A stretch of 64,000 nucleotides of DNA from a bacterium (GCA_043811375.1 JBDRNJ010000019.1:1-64000), one strand, 5' to 3'; shown: positions 1-27,277, counted from the first letter of the stretch. Numbers and translations: made by a program. The notes: generated from the sequence alone by a model not told the origin.

Positions 1-8
1 GGTTCCGA

Positions 9-156
9 CAGGTCTTGCCGACGACGAAGTCGGAGGTATGACCTGGCGGTAACTCTGGAAGTGCTGAATAGACAATAGAATCGCTAAACTGTCAGTTCAC
101 ACGTTTGGTAAGCCAAACGCAAGAACTGACAGAACAATGAAGTGGGTTTTACCCAC
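9..156. repeat. Cluster of hairpins / REP-like palindromes upstream of the M50 gene
   Basis: CAGGTC..CCGAC-gacgaa-GTCGG..GACCTG (9-45); CTGTCAGTTC..CGTTTGG-taag-CCAAACG..GAACTGACAG (89-132); GTGGGT-ttt-ACCCAC (142-156). Confidence 0.5.
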
Positions 157-293
157 GAATGGGGTTTACCTGTAAACGGGGTTTTGTACAGTGGTGGAGC
201 TACAGCAGAAAGTCGACAAACAAAGCCAGGTAAATGTGGCTTGCCACTAGCATGCCACCTTGCCCGGCAGTATTGAGGTTCTTAGATTGACGC

Positions 294-2603
294 ATGTCCG
301 CTTATTACCGGTTACGCGACGATTTGGTCTGTTCGAAGGGAGTTGTCGACGGTAACACTGTCTATAATATCAAAGATCCCCGAACCGGCCGCTATTTCCG
401 TCTCCGGGAGCCGGAGTACTGGCTGGTTCGACAACTGGATGGCCACACCTCCTCTAAGATAATTGCCGATCGTTTCCGCCGAAAGTTCAACGCCCGGCTG
501 ACGGCGACCGATGTCGATCAGTTTGTGGCTCAACTGAGCGAGCTGCGGTTTCTGGATGACGGTCGCGCCGAACAGGAACTGTCCCGAAAGAGCTACCTCG
601 CCGGGCGTGGTGAATCACTGTTTGCCAGACTACTGTTTGTGAAGATCAGGGGTTTTAACCCGCAACTGTTGCTGGACCGACTGGTGAAAGTGTATCGCCC
701 TTTTCACCACTGGTTCTGGTGGGTGGTGCAACTGCTGATTGTAATCGTCGCTTTAGTCCTGCTGGCCGCCAATTTCCGGTATTTCAATGTAGACCTGTCA
801 ACTCTGTTACAACCCGGCTCGCTGGTGGCTGCAATACTGGCCGTGTTTGTGGTGGTCGCGCTGCATGAGTTTGCCCACGCCATTGTATGCCGTCATTACG
901 GAGGTGAGGTCCGGGAGATGGGCTTTTTGCTGTTGTACTTTCAGCCCTGCTTCTATACCGATCTTTCCGACGCCTGGCTCTTCGAGAAAAAAGCCCAGCG
1001 GCTGGTTGTCACCGCGGCCGGACCGCTTTTTCAACTGGTGCTGATGGCGCTGGCCGTTCTGATCTGGCGGGTGACTGTAATCGGTACGTTCATCAATGAA
1101 CTGGCACTAATCATAACGCTGGTCTGCTTGCTGACGGCCCTGTTCAATTTTAACCCTCTGATAAAGCTGGATGGATACTACCTGCTGTCGGACTGGGTGG
1201 AGATTCCCAACCTGCGCCGCCGGGCTTTTGATTACTTGTCCAATATGATCAAACGCCGGTTGCTGGGGTGGCCGATTGAACCACTCAGCGCGACCATTAA
1301 GGAAAAAAGAACTTATCTTCTATATGCCACCCTGGCGCTGTTTTACTCGGTCGGCCTTATCGGGTATGTGCTGGTCGTAGCGGCTCGGTTTCTGGTAGCC
1401 CACCTGGGCGCAGCGGGTTTAATGTTGTTGCTGGCGGTGTTATTGTTTACCTTGAGAACGGTTCTGGTCGGCTTTGGACGCGGCCTGGTGAAACATTTGT
1501 CATATATGAAGAGTTTGTGGAAAAAACCGTTGCGGCTGACGATACATATTGTCATCGCTGTCGCTGTTGTGGTCGTCGTGTTTGCACTGCCGGTTCCTCA
1601 CCGCGTATCCGGTGAGGTGACGGTCCGTCCGGTCGAAGAATTCACTCTGCTGCTGAATGAGTATGGCCTGCTGGAGCACAACTACCGTCGCGGCGGAGCC
1701 GATCCGGAAAGCCAGTCCGGCTACTTGCAGGTGACCACCACCGAAATGGCTGCTCTTGACCTGGTTCCGTTGGTCAGGGATGGCCAACAAGTGCGGTTGG
1801 GTGACACACTGGCGATAATGGTCTCAAACCAGGTAATCCAGGAGATTGCCGCCAATCAGGCCTTACTGGAAAAGTATAAAGGACAGCTGGCCCTGCTGAA
1901 AGCTCCTCCCAAAAAAGAGGCAATCGCCGAGGCTGAAAGCCAGGTAGCCGCCGCCCGGGCCGGCTATGACCAGTTTCAACGCGAGATGGATCGGATCGCC
2001 GAACTGGCCGAAAAGAACCTGTCCAGTCGCGAAGAACTGGAATCGGCTCGGTCGGCGGTGCAGATCGCTTCGGCCGAGCTGTCCAACAAAGAATCACGTC
2101 TGCAACTCCTTCTGGCCCCCCCCAGACCTGAAGAGATTGTGGTACTGCAGGCTGAGATTGAGAGACAAAAGGCACGGCTCGATTTTCTTAAAGCCCAGCA
2201 GGAAGCCCAGTCTATCATAACCCCTATCGAGGGAACAATTACAACTCACCATACCGGAGACGCCGTCCTGACGGTAATCAACAATCGTGTCATTGAACTG
2301 CTGACACCCGTCAGCGATTTCGATATCGGCCTGGTGGCAAAGGGCCAAACTGTTCGCTGCAAATTGCGTTCCTTTCCCGAACGAACATTCACCGGACGGG
2401 TCGTCCACATCCCCGGGAGCGCCCACACTGTTGACGGCAGCGCCAGGTTCATAGTGTCGATCGTCGTTGATAACACCGACGGCTTACTGTGCAATGGCAT
2501 GAGCGGATATGCCAAGATCGAGGTCGGCAAATCATCAATGGCAGGTCTGATTGTGCGCAAACTTGCGTCTGTTGTGCGCGTTGAATTCTGGTCGTGGTGG
2601 TAA
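294..2603 (+). CDS. PqqD/RRE-like domain + M50 (site-2) intramembrane zinc metalloprotease + HlyD-type membrane fusion domain
   Basis: N-terminal 'IKDPRTGRYFRL...LDG..DVDQFVAQLSELRFL' (PqqD-like pattern); HEFAH zinc motif; 'AAGP' and 'NFNPLIKLDGY' M50 motifs; TM helices; C-terminal lipoyl-like/coiled-coil/beta-barrel MFP ending 'GMSGYAKI'. Confidence 0.85.
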   Translation: MSAYYRLRDDLVCSKGVVDGNTVYNIKDPRTGRYFRLREPEYWLVRQLDGHTSSKIIADRFRRKFNARLTATDVDQFVAQLSELRFLDDGRAEQELSRKSYLAGRGESLFARLLFVKIRGFNPQLLLDRLVKVYRPFHHWFWWVVQLLIVIVALVLLAANFRYFNVDLSTLLQPGSLVAAILAVFVVVALHEFAHAIVCRHYGGEVREMGFLLLYFQPCFYTDLSDAWLFEKKAQRLVVTAAGPLFQLVLMALAVLIWRVTVIGTFINELALIITLVCLLTALFNFNPLIKLDGYYLLSDWVEIPNLRRRAFDYLSNMIKRRLLGWPIEPLSATIKEKRTYLLYATLALFYSVGLIGYVLVVAARFLVAHLGAAGLMLLLAVLLFTLRTVLVGFGRGLVKHLSYMKSLWKKPLRLTIHIVIAVAVVVVVFALPVPHRVSGEVTVRPVEEFTLLLNEYGLLEHNYRRGGADPESQSGYLQVTTTEMAALDLVPLVRDGQQVRLGDTLAIMVSNQVIQEIAANQALLEKYKGQLALLKAPPKKEAIAEAESQVAAARAGYDQFQREMDRIAELAEKNLSSREELESARSAVQIASAELSNKESRLQLLLAPPRPEEIVVLQAEIERQKARLDFLKAQQEAQSIITPIEGTITTHHTGDAVLTVINNRVIELLTPVSDFDIGLVAKGQTVRCKLRSFPERTFTGRVVHIPGSAHTVDGSARFIVSIVVDNTDGLLCNGMSGYAKIEVGKSSMAGLIVRKLASVVRVEFWSWW

Positions 2604-2702
2604 TTTTTTCACACTACCGGAAAAAGTTTCCCGCTTTAAGCGTGTGATCACATTGTTTTTTCGATTCGCATTAGAATAAGTGACCTTTTCGCATTCTATT
2701 CC

Positions 2703-2732
2703 TTGACGTCACCAAACTTCTCAGTATATTAT
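2703..2732 (+). promoter_or_regulatory. Putative sigma70 promoter for the small peptide ORF
   Basis: TTGACG (2703-2708) then TATATT/TATTAT 16-18 nt downstream in an AT-rich intergenic region; 5' hairpin AACCTTCCGC-ata-GTGGAAGGTT (2769-2791) follows. Confidence 0.55.
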
Positions 2733-2818
2733 TCGTTAGACAGTATGCATGTTCTTTGAAAACAAAATAACCTTCCGCATAGTGGAAGGTTTCACCTGCG
2801 CTTCCAAGGAGGTGTATC

Positions 2819-2911
2819 ATGGAGGATTACCAACTTAAGGTTGAAATCCTGGAAGCCAGGATTGCCCCGATCGGCTTGAGCCCGGGTGGTCAGTGGTGCA
2901 TTGGCCCGTAG
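2819..2911 (+). CDS. 30-aa putative precursor peptide MEDYQLKVEILEARIAPIGLSPGGQWCIGP (LExRIAP leader)
   Basis: Translated by hand (below ORF-track cutoff); perfect RBS AAGGAGGT at 2806-2813, 5 nt before ATG; followed by a terminator; adjacent to RRE-M50-HlyD gene. Confidence 0.8.
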   Translation: MEDYQLKVEILEARIAPIGLSPGGQWCIGP

Positions 2912-2929
2912 GGTAATCCTGAACAAGGA

Positions 2930-2970
2930 GGCAGGGCGGTGTAATAATCACCGCCCTGCCGTTTCCTTTT
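2930..2970. terminator. Intrinsic terminator between convergent peptide ORF and kinase
   Basis: Perfect 12-bp stem GGCAGGGCGGTG-taataat-CACCGCCCTGCC followed by GTTTCCTTTT; overlaps the kinase 3' end. Confidence 0.75.
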
Positions 2971-5953
2971 GTCCCAGAAGCGACGCCAGTCGTTTCACTT
3001 CGGCAATAAGGAACACGATCTCAGGTTTATTTTCAAACAGGTCTCTATCTGCTGTATCAGCTATAGCCGATCCCATCTTCCTGCACAGCCGCAGAGCGTT
3101 GCGGTAGCTTGCGAAACCCTGTTCATAATCGCCATCAGCTATATCGATTTGTCCCTGCAGAAGCCAGGCATTCATCATCTCAGGCAGCAGTCCTTTGTTA
3201 TTGGCAGTCATTCTCGCACGTGACAGGTATTCCCGGGCAATATCGGGTCGCCGACGAACCAGCATCAACCGCGCGGCGACGTTACACATCCAGGCCAGTT
3301 CGATATCTTCCGTTATTTCCTGAAGTTCCAGGAGCGGCACCTCGGCAATAGTATCGGCCGTATCCGCCTGATCCCGATCAAGCAGGCATTCGATAAGACT
3401 GAACCCGGCCAGCGTACTCTCTCGTTTCAAGCGCAGTTGGCTGACCAGGGAACGCGCCTGGTCGACGAGGTCAGTGTCGTGTGACAGTTTGGTCAACAGC
3501 AACAGGGCACCGAGCTGTCCGGACTTGTCGCCGGTTTCGCGGGCATCGGTCAGTGCCTGCCGGACCATTCGCCGGGCCTGTTCATTATCGCCTATAGTGC
3601 TCCTCAAGGCGGCCTGCTGAATCCCGAGCAGCACGCCCAGCAGTCGGTCGGCTTTTTCCTCAACGATCGTGCCGACAGCGGCCAGCCGCTCGGCGGCATC
3701 GGAAAACCGACCCATACGGGATAGAACTGTACCCATACTCAGGTTAAACACGCCCAGGTGGGGTCGGTCATCGAGAGACTCAGCCAGAGCCATCCCTTCC
3801 TTCAGATATCCCAATGATTTTCTCAGTTGCCCGGCAGTGATCATCACGGCGGTGAGGTTTTCGAGATTGTACAGAATTTCCTTCTTGCTGTCGATACGCC
3901 GATTGATCTGAAGCGATTTCTCAAGCATCGACAACGCTTCTTCGCCCTGCCCGTTAAGGCGATAGATATATCCGAGGTTATTTAACGACCGGGCGATTTC
4001 ACCATCATTACCGATCTCTGTCTTCAGCTCAAGCGACAGGCGCATCATGCGGCCGGCACGGCGATAGCGGCCCTGAATTGTGTAAACGGAACCGATATTG
4101 CTCAGTGTCGAGGCGATGTCGGCGACCGCATCCAGTTGGCGCTGGAGCTTAAGAGCACGGCGGTAATGGCGGATGGCGGCGTTTAGATCACCGGCCATCC
4201 AACATATATTGCCGAGGTTGTTTAAGGTATGCGAAATTTCCAGTTCGTCGCCCAACCGACGGTATACTTCCAGAGCTTTGTTAAGTGCTCGACGCCCGGC
4301 CGGGCAGTCCTGTTTTATTCGGTAGAGGTCGCCGAGATCCTTGTACGTTTCGCCCAGCAACTGATCCGGCAACAGTGATTGTGACAGCTCAATTATTCTG
4401 AGATAAGATTGCTCGGCCGGAGCAGTGTCTCCGTTTTGCTTGTGGATGTCTCCCTTAAGCATCATCAGATGGCGGGTTTTTGCATCCCGATCGGTCATCC
4501 CGGCATACTCGACAGCCCAGTTTATCAGGAACAGAGCTTCCTCTCCCCGACCCTGTCCCTGAAGCTCCCTGGCCGCCCGGCAGGCACATCTTTCGAGACC
4601 TTCCCAATCACCGGCTTGCAGGTACAGGCGAGCGGCTAATTCGCTCATACGGCTGCTTTCTGCCCGGGGGCCAAGCCCGGCTGAGTATTTCCTGACAAGG
4701 CGTGCACTGATAAGTGGCCGCAGCAGCACCGGCAAAAGTGGCGGGATATTATTCAATTCTTCATTCTCGACAAGCCCCGGGTTCCGGCAGACAGCGGTAT
4801 CGTTTAAGATGGCGGCCTTCAGCAGTCGCTTCCGGGTGCCGAATGATCTTCGGCTAAAATCGTTCAGCAGTCGACGTCGCAGGCAGGCGGGCCAGTAAAT
4901 GCGACCGCCGAAAGCAAACCCATCCCCGGTGTACTGCAGATTGCCCCTGATAAAATTGGCCGTCAGGATCAGCCGCAGAGTATCATCGCGACCGTTGCAC
5001 AACCGGTCAAGCTGTTCTCTTTGTCTATCGTCAACGATCAACAGCGGTCTGACGGCAGCGGTGCGATCGCAGCCGGAAGATATGAAATGTCCCGGGCGGA
5101 GCGCTTTCTCAAAGGGATAATCGGCTCCGGCCTGCCTCAGAAGCTGACAGACTTCCCAGCCGGATTGCAGTCGGTCGGTATCTTTCTTAGCCAGCAGTTG
5201 CGATACCAGATCAGCCAGCCGTCGGGGTACCTCCGGTCGGATGGTATTCAGCGGGGGGGGCTGGTGTTCCTGCACACGGCTACTGGTTCTGACTGGGTCA
5301 CTATCGTTATCCATAAAGGGATGTCTGCCGGTCAGTAACTGGTAGGCTATCACTCCCAACGCAAACAAGTCGGATTGGAAAGATGTCCTCCCCTCCACAA
5401 TGGTCTCGGGCGCCATGTAGCCGACGGTTCCCAGTCCTGCCCGGGCGTCGTCCGGTTCGTCACTGAACCGACCGAGGGAAAAATCCGACAGCTTGACATA
5501 GAACAGAGACCGGCGATTCTGGTTCTGCCAGTTCGGCGGCAGAAAGATATTGTGCGGCTTCAGGTCGCCATGGATGATGCCGTTGAGCCTCAGAAACTCC
5601 AGATCTACGGCAATAGCGGCCAGCAGATTCAGAGCCGGCGGGAGGTCCTCCAGCCGACCGCACTGGTCCAGGCTGGGACCGCTGCATAATTCCATCAGCA
5701 GGTATGGGGGTGAAACGGTAGAGACATCGAGCACTCGCACCAGGCCGGGGTAGTTGAGTTGTCCCACGAGCTTGTATTCTCTGGCGACTAATCCGGAAAA
5801 GACTGATTCCGAGTGGCCGGTATCCGCACGGGGATATTTCATGGCCAGATGACGTCCGTGTTTTTCCGAAGCAACCCTGACAACCTCGGCGGTCCCCCCC
5901 CGACCGAGAACGGCCAGAGGCCGCAGACCGGAAAGCTTAACCGGGAAGTTCAT
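2948..5953 (-). CDS. Hanks-type Ser/Thr protein kinase with C-terminal TPR array
   Basis: GRGGTAEV, AMK, HGDLKPHN, DFS (DFG variant), GTVGYMAPE, SDLFALG; multiple 'TLNNLG/SLNNLG' TPR repeats. Confidence 0.9.
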   Translation of the reverse strand: MNFPVKLSGLRPLAVLGRGGTAEVVRVASEKHGRHLAMKYPRADTGHSESVFSGLVAREYKLVGQLNYPGLVRVLDVSTVSPPYLLMELCSGPSLDQCGRLEDLPPALNLLAAIAVDLEFLRLNGIIHGDLKPHNIFLPPNWQNQNRRSLFYVKLSDFSLGRFSDEPDDARAGLGTVGYMAPETIVEGRTSFQSDLFALGVIAYQLLTGRHPFMDNDSDPVRTSSRVQEHQPPPLNTIRPEVPRRLADLVSQLLAKKDTDRLQSGWEVCQLLRQAGADYPFEKALRPGHFISSGCDRTAAVRPLLIVDDRQREQLDRLCNGRDDTLRLILTANFIRGNLQYTGDGFAFGGRIYWPACLRRRLLNDFSRRSFGTRKRLLKAAILNDTAVCRNPGLVENEELNNIPPLLPVLLRPLISARLVRKYSAGLGPRAESSRMSELAARLYLQAGDWEGLERCACRAARELQGQGRGEEALFLINWAVEYAGMTDRDAKTRHLMMLKGDIHKQNGDTAPAEQSYLRIIELSQSLLPDQLLGETYKDLGDLYRIKQDCPAGRRALNKALEVYRRLGDELEISHTLNNLGNICWMAGDLNAAIRHYRRALKLQRQLDAVADIASTLSNIGSVYTIQGRYRRAGRMMRLSLELKTEIGNDGEIARSLNNLGYIYRLNGQGEEALSMLEKSLQINRRIDSKKEILYNLENLTAVMITAGQLRKSLGYLKEGMALAESLDDRPHLGVFNLSMGTVLSRMGRFSDAAERLAAVGTIVEEKADRLLGVLLGIQQAALRSTIGDNEQARRMVRQALTDARETGDKSGQLGALLLLTKLSHDTDLVDQARSLVSQLRLKRESTLAGFSLIECLLDRDQADTADTIAEVPLLELQEITEDIELAWMCNVAARLMLVRRRPDIAREYLSRARMTANNKGLLPEMMNAWLLQGQIDIADGDYEQGFASYRNALRLCRKMGSAIADTADRDLFENKPEIVFLIAEVKRLASLLGQKETAGR

Positions 5954-7794
5954 TGACGCTTCTTGAGTGGTTTTTTCTTCTTGGGTCGAAAGCGTGGCAG
6001 GGTAATCGTGAACGTAGTGCCTTCACCGAGAGTGGATTGTGCCGTCAGTTCGCCATAGTGCTGCTCGACAATCTTCTTGCAGTTGGCCAGACCAAGACCA
6101 TGGCCGCCCTTCTTGGTCGTGAAGTGCATGGCGAAAATCCTGGACAGTGTCTCGGGTGACATACCGATACCGCTATCATCGATCGAGACGCTTATCTCTT
6201 CGTTTTCCTTGTCGTAGGCGACCGCGATACTGATATCTTTGGTGACCGGCTCATCGCTGTCGCCCTGCCGGGCGACTTTTTCATCGATGGCATCACCGGC
6301 ATTGTTCAGCAGATTCATCAGGACCTGTTGGATCAGACCGACATCAATCTCCAGATTGGGGATCTCTGAGTTCATATCGATATTGAAGTGCATCCGCTTA
6401 AAACGCGGCTGTACCCGCAGTGAAAACAACAGATCCTCGATCAGGTGTTTTATATCATAGCTGATGTACTCTGACTCCGGGCGTGAGAAATCCATCAGGT
6501 TGTCGACAAACCGCTTGATCTTGAAGATGTTTTCCGTGATCGATCTGCTGTTGAAGACCGCTTTGTCGTACTTCTGTCGTTCCACGTTGAGGGCCAGCAA
6601 CTCAGCATTGTTGGAGGCGATGGCCAGATAGTTGTTCAGCTCGTGCGCCACGGATGCGGCCATCTCTCCCTTGGCCACCAGTTTCTCCGAGAGGATGACG
6701 TACTTCTCCATGAGCACTTTCTCAGTGATATCCTCTACGGTCATTATCAAACCATCATGCCCGTTGAGCAGATCGGGCAAGGGAGAAATCTTGACCGACA
6801 GCGCTTTCTCGATGTAGCCGGTATTGTGAAAATAACGAGGTTCGGAGACTTCCTGCTGAGTAGTCAGGGCGATATCAGCCATAGCTTTCCAGCGTGCCTG
6901 CTCGCCGTTGGGCAGCAGGTCGAAGAAGCAGCAGGGCTCTTCGGTTTCACCGACCAGTCTGATATCTTCACGGTTCAGGTCGAAAATCTCCAGAGCGACC
7001 GAATTGACAGTAGCCAGACGACCACTGCTGTCGACCACGATAATCCCTACCGGTGACTTGCTGACTACCATCTCGTTGTACCGTTTGAGACTGAGCAGGG
7101 AATCGTACATGCTGGCATTATGCAGTGCCCGCGAGGCCATCTGAGCATACAGTTCAAACAGGTACAGATCAGACTTCAAGAACATCCTGGCCTGATTGGA
7201 GTTGTCGAGATAGATCACACCGATCACGCTGTCCTTGACCTTCAGGGGTACACACATAATCGATCGCAGGTGCATCTCGACCACTGACTGCTGCTGGGCG
7301 TACCGTTCATCTTCCAGAGCGTCGGAGGTGTAGATCGATTTCCCGCTGTACGCTACTTCAGAAGCGACCGTACGAGAGATTTTCAGATCCTCCTCAGGTG
7401 TCTCATCCCGACGGAGATTGTAAGCCGAACGAATCTGGAACTCATCTTTTTCGTCCAGCAGCATAATCAGCCCACGTTCAGCCTGCATCAACTCCACCGC
7501 TTTGTGCATAACAATTTGTAGCATGTCGTCCAGCACCAGCGAGGAGTTGACCGCCAGTGAGACTTCCAGCAGTGCTTTCAGGTCATGAGCTGTCCGTGAG
7601 GGATCCTGTGTCTGGTCATCCAGACGCGGATGAGTCCGGGCGACTTCGTCGAGGGTAGCCTCAAGGTCAGCGAATACATCCCTGGCCTTCATTTCAGATT
7701 CATGATCGACAGCACCGTCGATATCGGCCCGGTCCACCGGGGTACTGTCCGAATGTTCGTCACCGGTCAGTGGCTTGGAATTTATTTGTTTCAT
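5950..7794 (-). CDS. Cytoplasmic GAF-PAS sensor histidine kinase
   Basis: GAF 'SIMCVPLKVKDSVIGVIYLDN'; PAS-like middle; H-box 'VAHELNN', N-box 'NLLNNAGDA', G-boxes 'DSGIG','GHGLGL'. Confidence 0.9.
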   Translation of the reverse strand: MKQINSKPLTGDEHSDSTPVDRADIDGAVDHESEMKARDVFADLEATLDEVARTHPRLDDQTQDPSRTAHDLKALLEVSLAVNSSLVLDDMLQIVMHKAVELMQAERGLIMLLDEKDEFQIRSAYNLRRDETPEEDLKISRTVASEVAYSGKSIYTSDALEDERYAQQQSVVEMHLRSIMCVPLKVKDSVIGVIYLDNSNQARMFLKSDLYLFELYAQMASRALHNASMYDSLLSLKRYNEMVVSKSPVGIIVVDSSGRLATVNSVALEIFDLNREDIRLVGETEEPCCFFDLLPNGEQARWKAMADIALTTQQEVSEPRYFHNTGYIEKALSVKISPLPDLLNGHDGLIMTVEDITEKVLMEKYVILSEKLVAKGEMAASVAHELNNYLAIASNNAELLALNVERQKYDKAVFNSRSITENIFKIKRFVDNLMDFSRPESEYISYDIKHLIEDLLFSLRVQPRFKRMHFNIDMNSEIPNLEIDVGLIQQVLMNLLNNAGDAIDEKVARQGDSDEPVTKDISIAVAYDKENEEISVSIDDSGIGMSPETLSRIFAMHFTTKKGGHGLGLANCKKIVEQHYGELTAQSTLGEGTTFTITLPRFRPKKKKPLKKRQ

Positions 7795-13233: not shown

Positions 13234-13800
13234 TCATTTACGATAACGGCGCGTGTAGTCGGCAAAAGCCAGGACATGAGATTCAAACGCGATGTCATCG
13301 GGAAGATCGTCAAACGGAAAAAAACGAACGTCGAGAGCGTCGTCGGCCGGCTTCATGGTGCCACCGACAACATCGGCCAGATAGAGTATCAACAGTGCGT
13401 TTGTTCGGGGGTCGTCATTGCCGGAGTACACGTCAAACAGCGACGTCAGGCGTATCTGCAGGCCGGTCTCTTCACCGACCTCCCTGACGGCCGTTTGCCG
13501 GGGGTGCTCATCCCATTCCATGAAACCGGCCGGTATACACCACCATCCGATACGCGGCATGTGGGCTCGTTTGACCAGCAGGATCCGGTCATCATCAACT
13601 ATGATAGCACCGACTGCCGGTACCGGGTTCTGATAAAAAACGAACCGGCAACTCTGATCCGGGCATATCATCCGTCGGCGATGATCGACTTCACTGACCA
13701 CCAGCGCTTGACCGCACAACGGACAGAAGCGGTAGCCACAGTGAGAATTTTTGCGTTCTATAAGCTTTTTCTCGTCGAAATCCTGTTGATGATTATCCAT
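13234..13800 (-). CDS. NUDIX hydrolase with N-terminal zinc ribbon
   Basis: FCPLCG..CPDQSC; Nudix box 'GFMEWDEHPRQTAVREVGEETGL'. Confidence 0.9.
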   Translation of the reverse strand: MDNHQQDFDEKKLIERKNSHCGYRFCPLCGQALVVSEVDHRRRMICPDQSCRFVFYQNPVPAVGAIIVDDDRILLVKRAHMPRIGWWCIPAGFMEWDEHPRQTAVREVGEETGLQIRLTSLFDVYSGNDDPRTNALLILYLADVVGGTMKPADDALDVRFFPFDDLPDDIAFESHVLAFADYTRRYRK

Positions 13801-16048
13801 GGCCGGCCACACTGTCGTTCATTTTGATGGTGATAATGGTCGTGTCGTCCCGCGGGGGATAAGTTGGATCATGACTGCGCACGTCGTTTAAGATCATGTC
13901 AATCAGGTTTTGCGGGGTCTGGTCACGGTGTTGCACCAGCATCCGGCAAATGCGCTCCTCGCCGTATTCCTGCTCATCGGTGTCCATAGCCTCCGACAGG
14001 CCATCGGTGAAAAGAAACAGCACGTCATGTGGCTGCAACTGTACATCGCAGGAAACATATTCCGTGTGGGGCAGGGCACCGATCACCATACCGCCCTCCT
14101 TGAGCAACTCGATCTCGCCGTTGCGGCGTATCAGGATCGGGTAGTTGTGACCGGCGTTGGCGTAGCAAAAACGACCGTGCCTGGTGTCCAGCTCACCGTA
14201 AAACAGGGTCGCATATTTTTCTGCCGAGGAAGAGCGCAGGATCTGCTGATTCATATTTTTCATCATGATGTTGATACGGCTGCCGTTGTTGACTTCGCTG
14301 CGTACCATGGCCTGAATCTGGGCAATCATAAGTGCCGCCGGCATCCCTTTGCCGGAGGCATCGGCGATTACCACCGCCATGGCATGATCGCTGATGGCAA
14401 TGAAATCATAGAAATCCCCTCCTACGGTCCGTGACGGCATGGAATGAGCGGCAACTGTAAACGACTCGATCTGCGGGGGCTTCGAGGGCTGCAGAGCCAG
14501 TTGAATCTGTCGCGCCATGTTCACTTCTTCCTGCAGGCGTATCCGCTCCAGGGAATCCACGTATAAGCGAGCATTGGTCAGAGCCGTAACGATCTGGTTG
14601 GACAGCACACCCAGCAGGTTGATATCTTCCGAAGAGTAGTGATAACCGGCGGCCTTGTCCGACAGAGCGACGAAACCCAGCAGGTCATTGGCATCCTTGA
14701 GAGGCAACACCAACCGAATACGATTCTCCGACAGGAATGCGGCCAGTTGTGAGCCTTCGGAGTAATCCGACAACGAATGCATGAACGTCGGAGTATCCAG
14801 CAGGTTGATACCCCGCAGCATCAGATCTTCACGAGCCAGCACTGTGCGCCGGGGACGGCCTTCCCCGGGCAGGATAGCGTACTCACCGACCGTATCGTCA
14901 AACAGCACGAAGTATACTCGTTCAACCAGCAGAGCCGTCTTCAGGGTTTCCTCGATTATCCGCAGCAGTTTCCTGGGATCGAAAAGGGAGATTACCTGGC
15001 GTGAGAACCTCTCCAGTACATTACGATGATCGCTGCGCGTGCGAATGAACATCGACTGAACGAGATTGTCGATCCAGTTGTTGATCGGTTGAAACAGCAG
15101 CAGGATAAGGATGATAAAGCCGTAGCCGACTACCTCGGCCTGGTCACCAAACAGAGGTCCCAGTATCTTCCTGGCTTGCACCACTACCAGGATATAGATG
15201 CCGACCAGCAGACCGGACATGATTGTGACCACGAATGACTGGCGGAAAACCAGGCGAACATCAAGGAATTGATGTCTGATGACGGCGAAGATAAGATATG
15301 CCGTCCATATCAGCAGAGCGACCAGAAACAATCCCAGTTTCAGGTCGTCTGAAATCTTCTCGGTCAACAGTAACGAAGCCACCAGGGTGGCTGTGTAAAG
15401 ACCGCCACCAGCACGAGTACCCCAAAGTACCAGGCGTGTCTGTGTTAACAGTCGCGGGTTGGTTACGAGTCGGCGACCGGACTCCAGGAAATAAAGAGCC
15501 AGAATCAGGTAGAACAGGTGAAAGACACTGAAGATGGCCAGTCGGTAGGTGTAAATAAGACCTATCAGTACAAATAATAGTGAGGTCAGCTTGGCCACCG
15601 GTTTGAGCAGCACACTGGAAAATCCTTCCTGGGCGGCGCTGGTCTCAAGAAACTGCACCGCGGCGGCGATCTTGTCGAAAAACAGGGCCAGGGCCACGTG
15701 CAGCAACTGGGGCAGGAAAATCAGGTATTTGACACGAAGGTGCTTAAACCCGCGCAGGCGATCGACGGGGAAAATCCAGGAAAAAAGCAGCATCAACGGG
15801 AAAACCAGATACCAGATATGCTGCAAGTGATATAGGGGCGACTCCTGCAAACTGCCGGTAGAGTCGGCCTGCTGCATGATGGTACCCAGGGCGACAAACA
15901 ACGGTCCCAGGCCGGCAAACAGCAACATGGCCCCCGTTACACGGTTCAACCGACTGGCAAAACTGTCCCGGGTAACCATGATCGCCAGAAAGATCAAAAA
16001 TCCCCCGGACAAGAAACATACTACTATTTTGACTAACTGCCAGTCCAT
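13793..16048 (-). CDS. Membrane-bound GAF + SpoIIE/PP2C phosphatase (RsbU-like)
   Basis: Multiple N-terminal TMs; GAF; VGGDFYD, ADASGKG, NAGH, FTDGLSE, DDTT. Confidence 0.9.
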   Translation of the reverse strand: MDWQLVKIVVCFLSGGFLIFLAIMVTRDSFASRLNRVTGAMLLFAGLGPLFVALGTIMQQADSTGSLQESPLYHLQHIWYLVFPLMLLFSWIFPVDRLRGFKHLRVKYLIFLPQLLHVALALFFDKIAAAVQFLETSAAQEGFSSVLLKPVAKLTSLLFVLIGLIYTYRLAIFSVFHLFYLILALYFLESGRRLVTNPRLLTQTRLVLWGTRAGGGLYTATLVASLLLTEKISDDLKLGLFLVALLIWTAYLIFAVIRHQFLDVRLVFRQSFVVTIMSGLLVGIYILVVVQARKILGPLFGDQAEVVGYGFIILILLLFQPINNWIDNLVQSMFIRTRSDHRNVLERFSRQVISLFDPRKLLRIIEETLKTALLVERVYFVLFDDTVGEYAILPGEGRPRRTVLAREDLMLRGINLLDTPTFMHSLSDYSEGSQLAAFLSENRIRLVLPLKDANDLLGFVALSDKAAGYHYSSEDINLLGVLSNQIVTALTNARLYVDSLERIRLQEEVNMARQIQLALQPSKPPQIESFTVAAHSMPSRTVGGDFYDFIAISDHAMAVVIADASGKGMPAALMIAQIQAMVRSEVNNGSRINIMMKNMNQQILRSSSAEKYATLFYGELDTRHGRFCYANAGHNYPILIRRNGEIELLKEGGMVIGALPHTEYVSCDVQLQPHDVLFLFTDGLSEAMDTDEQEYGEERICRMLVQHRDQTPQNLIDMILNDVRSHDPTYPPRDDTTIITIKMNDSVAGHG

Positions 16049-16076
16049 AGCCGACTATTCCCGGTAGAGTCAACCT

Positions 16077-16496
16077 CTACAGTTGTTTGGTAATAATCAC
16101 CGTAGTTCCCCGCCCGGAGGTCTCGATGACGACACTATCCATCAGGGAACGGACAATAAAGATCCCCCGACCGGCTTCTTTGAGCAGGTTTTCATCGGCC
16201 AGGGGATCGTCTATCGAGTCCGGGTCAAAACCGCTGCCCGGATCGGAAACACCTATCTTTATCAGACCGTCGGTTCTGTCAATAGTTACAACAATGGGTT
16301 GTTCGGGTAAGGAAGCACTGCCGTGAGCCACAGCGTTATTGATCAATTCGGAAACGGAGATGGCAATGTCGGCAATGGCCGATTCCTCGGCTCCATGCCG
16401 TCGCAGAAAACCCTCGACAAACTCATCAACATCGGTGAGGTATTTCAGGCTGGCCGGGATGGAGATCGAGTTGTCCGAGATAACAGGTTTGTCCAT
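16077..16496 (-). CDS. Anti-sigma factor / Ser kinase (RsbW-like)
   Basis: 'ISVSELINNAVAHG', 'DPGSGFD', 'GRGIFIVRSLMD'; start placed at MDKPV with AGGAG RBS. Confidence 0.9.
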   Translation of the reverse strand: MDKPVISDNSISIPASLKYLTDVDEFVEGFLRRHGAEESAIADIAISVSELINNAVAHGSASLPEQPIVVTIDRTDGLIKIGVSDPGSGFDPDSIDDPLADENLLKEAGRGIFIVRSLMDSVVIETSGRGTTVIITKQL

Positions 16497-16583
16497 CGGC
16501 TGAGAATCTCCTAAGAAGACAGGCAGGTCACCGGGGAGCCTTCCTGCCATGCAGATTTATTTTAGAACGGGAGCACAACATGC

Positions 16584-25638: not shown

Positions 25639-25684
25639 AAACTAAGACTTGCGTTGAGATATATCAATGTGTTTTCTTGCCGGT

Positions 25685-27277
25685 ATGGTTGAAAACTGTC
25701 TTTATTTCGGTGATAACCTTGATATACTTCGTCATCACATAAAAGACGAGTCGGTCGATCTCGTTTACCTTGATCCCCCGTTCAATTCCAACCGTGCCTA
25801 CAATGTGATCTTTCAAGACAAAACAGGCAAGAAGGCCGCAGCCCAGATTCGAGCTTTCGAGGATACCTGGTGGTGGAGTGACGAAACGCAGGCCGCTTAT
25901 GATGAAATGTTAAGCGGCGATTATCCTGTCCAATTAAAGGACATGCTTATGGCGTTCCGTGAGTTCATGGGGCCAACCAATATGATGGCCTACCTGACGA
26001 TGATGGCAATTCGGCTGTTTGAACTACACCGGGTGCTCAAACCAACCGGGTCGCTTTATCTTCACTGTGATCCGACAGCTGGTCATTATCTTAAAATTCT
26101 TCTTGATCAGGTTTTTGGAATTAAAAACTTTCGCAACGAGATCGTGTGGAAGAGGACCAGCGGACACAGTGATAAGAAGGGGTGTGGTAGTACACATGAT
26201 ATTCTGTTCTACTACACGAAAAGTGATTTATTTACATGGAATAGAATATTCCAGGACTATTCGGAAGAATACATACGAACTCATTTTAGGAAGGACGAAG
26301 ATGGCCGGGTTTTTCAAGATTATGATTTGACAGCCGGTGGTTTGTCGGGTGGAGGTTACGGCTATGAATGGAAAGGAATAACGCGAACATGGCGTTGTCC
26401 ATTAGACACCATGAAGAAATACGAAAAGGAAGACCGGCTTTATTATACACGCTCCGGCCTAGCTCGTTACAAACGCTACTTGGATGAAATCCCTGGTACA
26501 CCGCTCCAGGATGTCTGGAGCGATATTCCACCTGTGAATCCAGCATCGAAGGAGAAGTTGGGTTATCCCACTCAAAAACCACTTGCACTTCTTGAAAGGA
26601 TCGTTATATCCTCTTCGAATGAAGGTGACGTTTTGCTCGACCCCTTCTGCGGCTGTGGCACTACAATAGCAGCAGCAGAAAAGCTGCGTCGCAAATGGAT
26701 CGGGATTGATATTACATATCTTGCTATTGCCCTCATTAAGAAAAGGATTCTTGAACATTTCCCTGACTGCAAGTTTGAGATAATCGGTGAGCCAAAGTCG
26801 ACCGACGATGCTAAGGCGCTATTCAAACAGTCGCCATTTCAATTTGAAAGCTGGGCGGTATCGTTCCTTGGAGGGCAACCGTTCAAAAGCACCGGCGGAG
26901 GCGACACCGGCATAGACGGCTTCCTGTACTTCCAGGATTACAAGAAGAAGTATCACAAAGTGATTATCGAAGTAAAAGGCGGTAAATATCAGCCGCGTGA
27001 TATCAGAGCTTTAGCCAGAGTGATGGAGCGTGAAGGTGCTCCGCTGAGTATTCTCATTGCCTTACAACCTCCCACTGCCGGCATGAAGCGTGAAGCCACT
27101 ACGCTTGGTAAATGGCAACTACCCGGACACGACAAAGAATTTCCGGTTCTACAAATTGTTACGATTGATGAACTTTTCAAGGGCAAGCTACCTAAACTGC
27201 CTGACACAAGTAGTACCTTAAAACGTGCTCAGCAAATGGTAAAAGAAAATCATCAGAACCATCTTGATCTCAAGTAA
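25685..27277 (+). CDS. N6/N4 DNA methyltransferase fused to a C-terminal Mrr-like PD-(D/E)XK domain
   Basis: 'VDLVYLDPPFNS', 'YPTQKP', 'LDPFCGCGTT'; C-terminal 'DTGIDG..IIEVKGG'; visibly AT-richer than flanks. Confidence 0.85.
   Translation: MVENCLYFGDNLDILRHHIKDESVDLVYLDPPFNSNRAYNVIFQDKTGKKAAAQIRAFEDTWWWSDETQAAYDEMLSGDYPVQLKDMLMAFREFMGPTNMMAYLTMMAIRLFELHRVLKPTGSLYLHCDPTAGHYLKILLDQVFGIKNFRNEIVWKRTSGHSDKKGCGSTHDILFYYTKSDLFTWNRIFQDYSEEYIRTHFRKDEDGRVFQDYDLTAGGLSGGGYGYEWKGITRTWRCPLDTMKKYEKEDRLYYTRSGLARYKRYLDEIPGTPLQDVWSDIPPVNPASKEKLGYPTQKPLALLERIVISSSNEGDVLLDPFCGCGTTIAAAEKLRRKWIGIDITYLAIALIKKRILEHFPDCKFEIIGEPKSTDDAKALFKQSPFQFESWAVSFLGGQPFKSTGGGDTGIDGFLYFQDYKKKYHKVIIEVKGGKYQPRDIRALARVMEREGAPLSILIALQPPTAGMKREATTLGKWQLPGHDKEFPVLQIVTIDELFKGKLPKLPDTSSTLKRAQQMVKENHQNHLDLK

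Follow-up and report, generated by a model that had tools for sequence, protein, structure and literature searches.

The subject of this analysis is a stretch of bacterial DNA of 64,000 nucleotides (GCA_043811375.1 JBDRNJ010000019.1:1-64000), hereafter the window, near the start of which three neighboring genes constitute a module that is real, highly conserved and apparently undescribed. The genes encode a precursor peptide of 30 amino acids, a single polypeptide (the fusion) in which a recognition element (RRE) for peptides that are made on the ribosome and modified after translation (RiPPs) is combined with an M50 protease and a HlyD-type adaptor, and a Ser/Thr kinase extended by tetratricopeptide repeats (kinase-TPR). 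Their distribution was analyzed in 251 genomes of one phylum, inferred to be the Zixibacteria. A signaling mechanism is proposed for the module: judged from the sequences, the three products probably form a peptide signaling circuit, comprising leader-guided cleavage, export, uptake, binding to the TPR region and relay to a GAF-domain histidine kinase. The data on which this proposal rests are the genes, their motifs, co-occurrence and order, and the decay of the GAF domain. The kinase-TPR gene, which the first-pass annotation of the window had not linked to the other two, is the third member of the system and, with the GAF histidine kinase, provides the best functional evidence.

The precursor gene (2819..2911, plus strand) encodes a leader (residues 1-17; 2819-2869), a conserved core, IGLSPGGQ (2870-2893), and a variable tail. 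This open reading frame (ORF) is a real gene, conserved beyond chance, because of its codon-position pattern, its ratio of nonsynonymous to synonymous differences (pN/pS), its use of two serine codon families, its promoter-like site and its conservation. Among 43 aligned copies, the L, E, L and E residues of the leader are invariant, and the invariant Leu is encoded by all six codons. The Ser-x-Gly-Gly of the core is conserved to at least 90%, the Ser itself being present in 42 of the 43 copies with codons from both the AGY and TCN families. Third codon positions are the most variable (majority-base fractions of 0.80/0.84/0.53 by position), and pN/pS is 0.34. A profile search detected the precursor in 206 of the 251 genomes, mostly as a single copy; a lack of conservation, which the first-pass annotation had named as grounds against its proposal, was thus not encountered. 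The product proposed at that stage, a 13-residue core rich in Gly, Pro, Trp and Cys, has to be revised, since the conserved core spans 7-8 residues with GGQ at its end and the Trp/Cys tail is variable, neither residue being conserved. About half of the precursor orthologues terminate at GGQ or just past it. Cores of the GGQ type belong to family f1, those of families f9 and f14 being of a GxGS type. Querying the ESM Atlas with the peptide returned only unnamed clusters, below 0.9, and the window peptide together with 17 precursors from other phyla matched no relevant Pfam or NCBIfam family, giving low-complexity matches only.

All of the signals previously noted around this unannotated ORF were located. 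The ribosome-binding site, AAGGAGGT (2806..2813, plus strand), was read directly from the sequence, and AGGAGG lies upstream of 42 of the 43 precursor copies as called. A sigma70-type promoter-like site (TTGACG-16-TATATT; 2703..2730, plus strand), whose position is kept in the alignment, has counterparts 5' of 39 of 43 peptide-gene copies, compared with 11% of shuffles. Fold prediction places a hairpin in the 5' untranslated region (UTR) at 2769..2791 (plus strand), and a bidirectional terminator-like hairpin with a 12-bp stem (2930..2960, flagged on both strands) lies between the peptide and kinase genes and overlaps the kinase stop codon; the region 2737-2972 as a whole folds with z = -6.2. 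Close relatives have similar 5' hairpins of altered sequence, as judged by eye, and an Rfam search of window positions 1-3100, the 5' hairpin included, gave no match.

Some copies of the peptide gene show further features. CsrA-like GGA(T/C)G motifs occur at a similar distance from the start in the 5' UTRs of loci L051-L055, L059, L061, L063 and L070; these motifs belong to families f2 and f3, and the window's copy is without them. In genome G038, a tandem pair of precursor genes (L056:7332-7911) carries a promoter-like site before each.

The fusion gene (294..2603, plus strand) encodes 769 residues, arranged as an RRE (residues ~1-90), an M50 intramembrane metalloprotease and a HlyD/MacA-type periplasmic adaptor (residues ~433-749). 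The first-pass assignment of these parts was upheld by Pfam, in which PqqD matches residues 28-87 with 23.5 bits (cut-off 23.4), and both Peptidase_M50 (residues 180-258) and HlyD_3 are over cut-off. The protease motifs HEFAH (residues 191-195) and NPLIKLDG (residues 287-294) are present, and H191, E192, H195, N285, P288, D293 and G294 are invariant across 32 orthologues. An N-terminal domain unlike PqqD had been foreseen as an objection; 17 of 29 fusion N-terminal domains match PqqD. The best NCBIfam match is daptide_HExxH (231.7 bits, E 1.5e-68), which does not reach its cut-off of 300, and there is a weak match to NF058609. In the AF2 model (mean confidence, pLDDT, 83), residues 12-83 form three strands and three helices, and a helical membrane part is followed by a beta/hairpin adaptor. 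A Foldseek search with the whole fusion matched the adaptor part to MacA and EmrA and returned adaptor matches only, leaving the RRE and M50 folds without confirmation from structure search; a PDB sequence search with the N-terminal domain found PqqD at E 0.18 only.

Full-length fusions were found in 53 of 61 relatives, and the N-terminal half was detected in 210 of the 251 genomes, the same set as in the peptide search. Of the 28 best loci having downstream DNA, 26 carry a matching small ORF 3' of the fusion, in line with the expectation of a conserved short precursor beside it. The leader had been described as daptide-like, which agrees with its Leu at -7 and Ala-Pro at -2/-1. The leader conservation common to several phyla stops at this Ala-Pro, a pattern that we infer to be compatible with cleavage after Pro.

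The kinase-TPR gene (2948..5953, minus strand) encodes a Ser/Thr kinase domain (residues ~10-274), a helical linker and a long TPR superhelix, and its product is the likely receptor. The catalytic residues of the kinase are invariant among orthologues, and the best-conserved residues of the TPR region constitute an Asn ladder (N578, N579, N582, N619, N658, N659, N684, N696 and N699; 51 orthologues). The AF2 model has a pLDDT of 90.9. In Foldseek, the kinase part matches PknB, and LGN and TSK, two TPR proteins with bound peptide, are the best matches of the TPR part among those listed. In some orthologues the linker retains a Walker A motif. At E 1e-30 the gene was detected in 192 of the 251 genomes, a figure that is an undercount, as divergent copies lie beside the peptide gene in families f9, f14 and f19.

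The neighboring gene (5950..7794, minus strand) encodes a GAF-PAS histidine kinase, which is the likely output of the kinase-TPR protein because its GAF domain decays where kinase-TPR is gone. In the 53 loci bearing kinase-TPR, this domain is 50-76% identical to that of the window; in all nine loci without kinase-TPR it is deleted or reduced to 11-30% identity, and the PAS and histidine kinase parts remain in eight of these nine. Residues S140, T142, S157 and S170 of the GAF-PAS histidine kinase do not vary among the loci bearing kinase-TPR. Genome G112 has lost the fusion, the peptide and the TPR region, and keeps a 319-residue kinase remnant together with a GAF domain at 50% identity. Genome G247 has lost the fusion and peptide and keeps the whole kinase-TPR gene and a GAF domain at 67%, which appears to fit a receptor-only state.

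The peptide, fusion and kinase-TPR genes appear to have been gained and lost together. In family f1 (95 genomes, with presence and absence tallied by hand from profile searches), peptide and fusion are both present in 73 genomes, both absent in 19 and discordant in 3, and all three genes are missing in 14. Families f13 (0/5) and f17 (0/2) likewise lack all three. In the seven triple-loss genomes inspected among the 14, the histidine kinase gene has the CLC channel gene as its immediate neighbor; all seven keep Omp85 and DUF4390, and the response regulator is kept in all six whose stretch covers it. On the Omp85 tree the losses require four changes, three of them forced by well-supported branches.

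Gene order was scored in loci picked around hits rather than at random, leaving out G187 and G239, in which the kinase gene reaches the contig end. Of 77 scorable genomes, 68 have the peptide gene tail-to-tail with kinase-TPR, and a position of the peptide gene 3' of the fusion is seen in 55 of 74. Adjacency to kinase-TPR is retained in 16 of the 19 genomes in which the fusion lies apart from the peptide gene. Genus g60 has lost kinase-TPR, and its peptides, in 4-7 copies, have an altered core.

At L130:7606-9348 (G151) and at L107 and L112 (G124), 5-7 precursors stand in tandem and have a core of another type (S-R/K-Y-G...). Kinase-TPR is lost in both array genomes, and no receptor or enzyme was seen near the arrays.

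In the proposed circuit, the RRE would bind the precursor leader and the M50 domain would cut after Ala-Pro, both by likeness to the daptide protease MpaP, giving a peptide of 7-8 residues that ends in GGQ. The HlyD part, acting with a TolC-type channel encoded elsewhere, would release the core; TolC-type proteins are indeed encoded elsewhere in the genome. The core may then re-enter the cell, possibly via a near-universal OPT-family transporter, which was found in 36 of 37 genomes (G000:C74:10463-12205 in that of the window) and is proposed as the route because Opp is mostly missing. Inside the cell it would bind the cytoplasmic TPR groove and set the activity of the Ser/Thr kinase, which in turn may act on the GAF domain of the neighboring histidine kinase. 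The length of the core agrees with that of known pheromones. The first-pass annotation had offered a minimal peptide signal or a toxin; the role of signal gained support, and that of toxin found none.

A number of observations weigh against the circuit. Its binding, cleavage, export and expression are predicted only. The approximately unbiased test does not reject a single clade of loss (p-AU 0.18), and the three genes are adjacent, so that one deletion could remove all of them. The peptide gene is not beside kinase-TPR in 9 of the 77 genomes, and the short gap and common terminator between the two might alone keep them adjacent. Two genomes (G180 and G201, 83-84% complete) carry peptide and kinase with no fusion detected, and g60 retains peptide and fusion without this kinase. 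As regards transport, OPT is not co-lost with the system and thus lends no dedicated support to re-import, Opp binding proteins (PF00496) had no match in the window's own genome and occur in only 9 of 61 relatives, and no ABC or other energizing exporter is linked to the system.

Several of these points would equally suit an internal sensor, in which the uncut precursor is an intracellular ligand that the fusion removes by cutting or exporting it, so that the TPR-kinase reads the status of the envelope or of export and not the density of cells. FlgM and ExsE are precedents for such secretion-coupled sensing. The co-loss data are equally compatible with this arrangement, and the rarity of Opp, the lack of an importer that tracks the system, the housekeeping type of the peptide promoter and the fusion-less state of G180 and G201 all speak in its favor. 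It nevertheless seems unlikely, since the intact receptor and GAF domain of G247, with no peptide gene found, are better explained by listening to neighbors, and the pairing of leader and fusion with diverse RiPP-like cores in other phyla fits the export of a product.

The core Ser, with its two codon families, and the invariant active site of the kinase could also be read as signs of a tailoring enzyme, the TPR region docking the precursor and the kinase phosphorylating the Ser before export of the phosphopeptide; the Ser position is indeed altered in g60, which lost the kinase. However, kinases whose catalytic motifs are intact have cores free of Ser and Thr as neighbors in G050 and G084, G247 retains the kinase without peptide and G112 a remnant of it that is missing the TPR region, and the GAF decay after kinase loss indicates the histidine kinase as the partner, all of which makes such a role improbable. 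Least probable of all is that a minimal peptide export pair, either resembling a bacteriocin system or served by modifying enzymes encoded far away, adjoins an unrelated kinase operon by chance. Adjacent genes can be deleted together, g60 retains the pair without the kinase, and the pair in other phyla adjoins tailoring enzymes and mostly no such kinase. Against this, in 16 of 19 rearranged genomes it is the kinase, not the fusion, with which the peptide stays, the fusion is kept in trans in rearranged families, and deletions end at the kinase gene, leaving the remainder of the operon intact. Moreover, a short neutral core that is kept in single copy throughout a phylum and has neither an immunity nor a tailoring gene linked to it does not resemble a bacteriocin.

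Homologues of the fusion occur in Acidobacteria, Rokubacteria, Gemmatimonadota, Planctomycetes, Verrucomicrobia and Bacteroidota, from which 80 of an estimated 1700 or so stretches were taken in. The search for short leader-bearing ORFs beside fusions, suggested at first pass, was successful here as well: a leader-only profile detected them in 23 of 31 loci at ≥9 bits and in 14 loci at ≥14 bits, with none in reversed controls, and a pattern scan added four loci. The cores in these phyla are longer and diverse.

At individual loci in these phyla, leader and fusion have as their neighbor a lanthipeptide dehydratase (L205:1865-5811), an RRE-sulfotransferase (L220:1036-2536), FemAB-like enzymes (L184, L227) or a kinase-TPR pair (L223:1316-5966), and such loci are candidates for undescribed RiPP clusters. 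A protein of ~335 residues with no Pfam or NCBIfam match directly follows the fusion at L184:8550-9557 and in six other non-Zixibacterial loci. Asn/Gly/Pro-rich cores of the GNPGNNNPP type, several per locus, were observed in L183, L192, L199, L208, L228, L229, L218 and L230, and are nearly unchanged across Acidobacteria, Gemmatimonadota and Planctomycetes.

A joint reading of the two sets of data, which we hold at even chances, is that an ancestral, phylum-wide pheromone system of diderm bacteria exists together with a general ABC-independent route of peptide export in other phyla. Under this reading, the one-chain RRE-protease-adaptor would make and export the signal, the TPR-gated Ser/Thr kinase would feed two-component signaling, receptor-only "listener" lineages would exist, and the LE(E/A/Q)RIAP leader and fusion would serve unexplored RiPP clusters in Acidobacteria, Planctomycetes, Gemmatimonadota and others. 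Outside the phylum, the leader-fusion pair flags many precursor peptides that carry no annotation, and within the uncultured Zixibacterial lineage the circuit could offer a handle on growth and behavior.

The surroundings of the module were also considered. Contig C19 begins with the window, whose bases 1-141 belong to the end of a non-coding dispersed repeat (~160-185 bp), with near-identical copies on C20, C88, C56, C4 and C24; this repeat accounts for the contig break, and an Rfam search with it gave no match. The idea of a two-gene system, or of enzymes lying upstream, found no support, given the linkage of kinase-TPR and the persistence of the relatives' upstream genes after loss. Upstream of the fusion, relatives encode a CLC channel or an FAD oxidase, or have variable genes, and tailoring partners there were rejected because the usual CLC and FAD-oxidase neighbors persist where the system is lost; in the window's genome, these two genes lie mid-contig elsewhere. 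Omp85, DUF4390, the NtrC-type regulator and the NtrY-type kinase were similarly rejected as dedicated parts, being retained after system loss. At 13793-16550, a 751-residue membrane protein, PP2C/SpoIIE-like at its C-terminus, and an anti-sigma-like gene, both named from sequence motifs, head a same-strand run shared with the kinase operon; the former is a possible counter-phosphatase. A DNA methyltransferase-like ORF with a DPPF motif (25667-27277) lies between mutS-like and mutL-like genes.

Among known systems, daptides are closest in processing. Their leader motif is ELExMEAP, with Pro at -1, and MpaP is proposed to cut after the Ala-Pro of a leader similar to that of the window (10.1101/2023.03.08.531785). 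The window leader shares L(-7), E(-6), A(-2) and P(-1) with this motif and differs at -3, -4 and -8, and an RRE fused N-terminally to M50 is common to both pathways (MpaA/DapA, MpaP/DapP). In contrast, the fusion scores below the daptide protease cut-off and has an extra HlyD adaptor, and its 7-8-residue core is missing the C-terminal Thr that is invariant in the hydrophobic daptide core; no tabulated core of the adjacency survey ends in Thr. The decarboxylase, aminotransferase, methyltransferase and ABC exporter of daptides are not conserved beside the window system, which has kinase-TPR linked instead; no DapB, DapC, DapD or DapM tailoring enzyme was a conserved neighbor in 40 wide loci, the search being confined to loci rather than whole genomes. 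In epipeptides, the M50 protease EpeP (YydH) is proposed to cut and export EpeX (YydF), a peptide made on the ribosome (PMC10885120), and the weak NF058609 match of the fusion points to this system; the module described here has no radical S-adenosylmethionine epimerase, has RRE and HlyD fused to the protease, and has another leader and core.

The giant secreted LEPR-XLL proteins (NF012209) have a short N-terminal LExR-type motif, as does the window leader, and are associated with M50/HlyD loci. The first-pass annotation had allowed that M50 homologues might be tied to such large proteins; every leader-bearing ORF found beside a fusion has a short tail, of 10-116 residues, and none is a giant LEPR-XLL protein. 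The window's genome gave no match to NF012209, and no second leader-bearing ORF was found in it.

On the signaling side, the RRNPP(A) systems (Rap/Phr, PlcR/PapR, and Rgg/SHP with the M50 protease Eep) likewise place a propeptide gene beside a cytoplasmic TPR receptor and involve a short mature peptide and M50-type processing, which is predicted here. Receptor genes without a pheromone gene are also discussed for RRNPP (PMC9765709). RRNPP(A) systems have been described in Firmicutes, with export by Sec and signal peptidase or Eep and uptake by Opp, whereas the window system belongs to a diderm phylum, has an acidic leader read by an RRE and a HlyD adaptor, and mostly lacks Opp. Its output is a Ser/Thr kinase plus histidine kinase, rather than a DNA-binding or phosphatase domain: no helix-turn-helix or Rap phosphatase effector with an RRNPP fold was found, the N-terminal domain being PknB-like and no RRNPP structure appearing among the best 50 Foldseek matches listed. 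The same domain set is found in cyanobacterial cbSTKIII/HstK dual kinases, in which Ser/Thr kinase, GAF and histidine kinase form one chain (PMC2176072), a likeness by domain content only. The window system differs from HstK in having two genes in reverse order and a long Asn-ladder TPR region tied to a peptide gene; among five long TPR proteins found in a weak test for a fused kinase-TPR-GAF-histidine kinase form, none had a histidine kinase domain.

In the literature outside most subscription journals and supplements (that of the daptide preprint may list RRE families), the leader or module was not described. In its proposed action the system resembles RRNPP signaling coupled to daptide-like processing, and falls outside RRNPP, daptides and LEPR-XLL alike. 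Cytoplasmic receptors of peptide pheromones have been described for Firmicutes, and the phylum concerned here is diderm and uncultured; if true, the circuit would represent a new signaling architecture, in which parts known from RiPPs, an RRE and a daptide-like protease, are read by a Ser/Thr kinase that feeds a histidine kinase.

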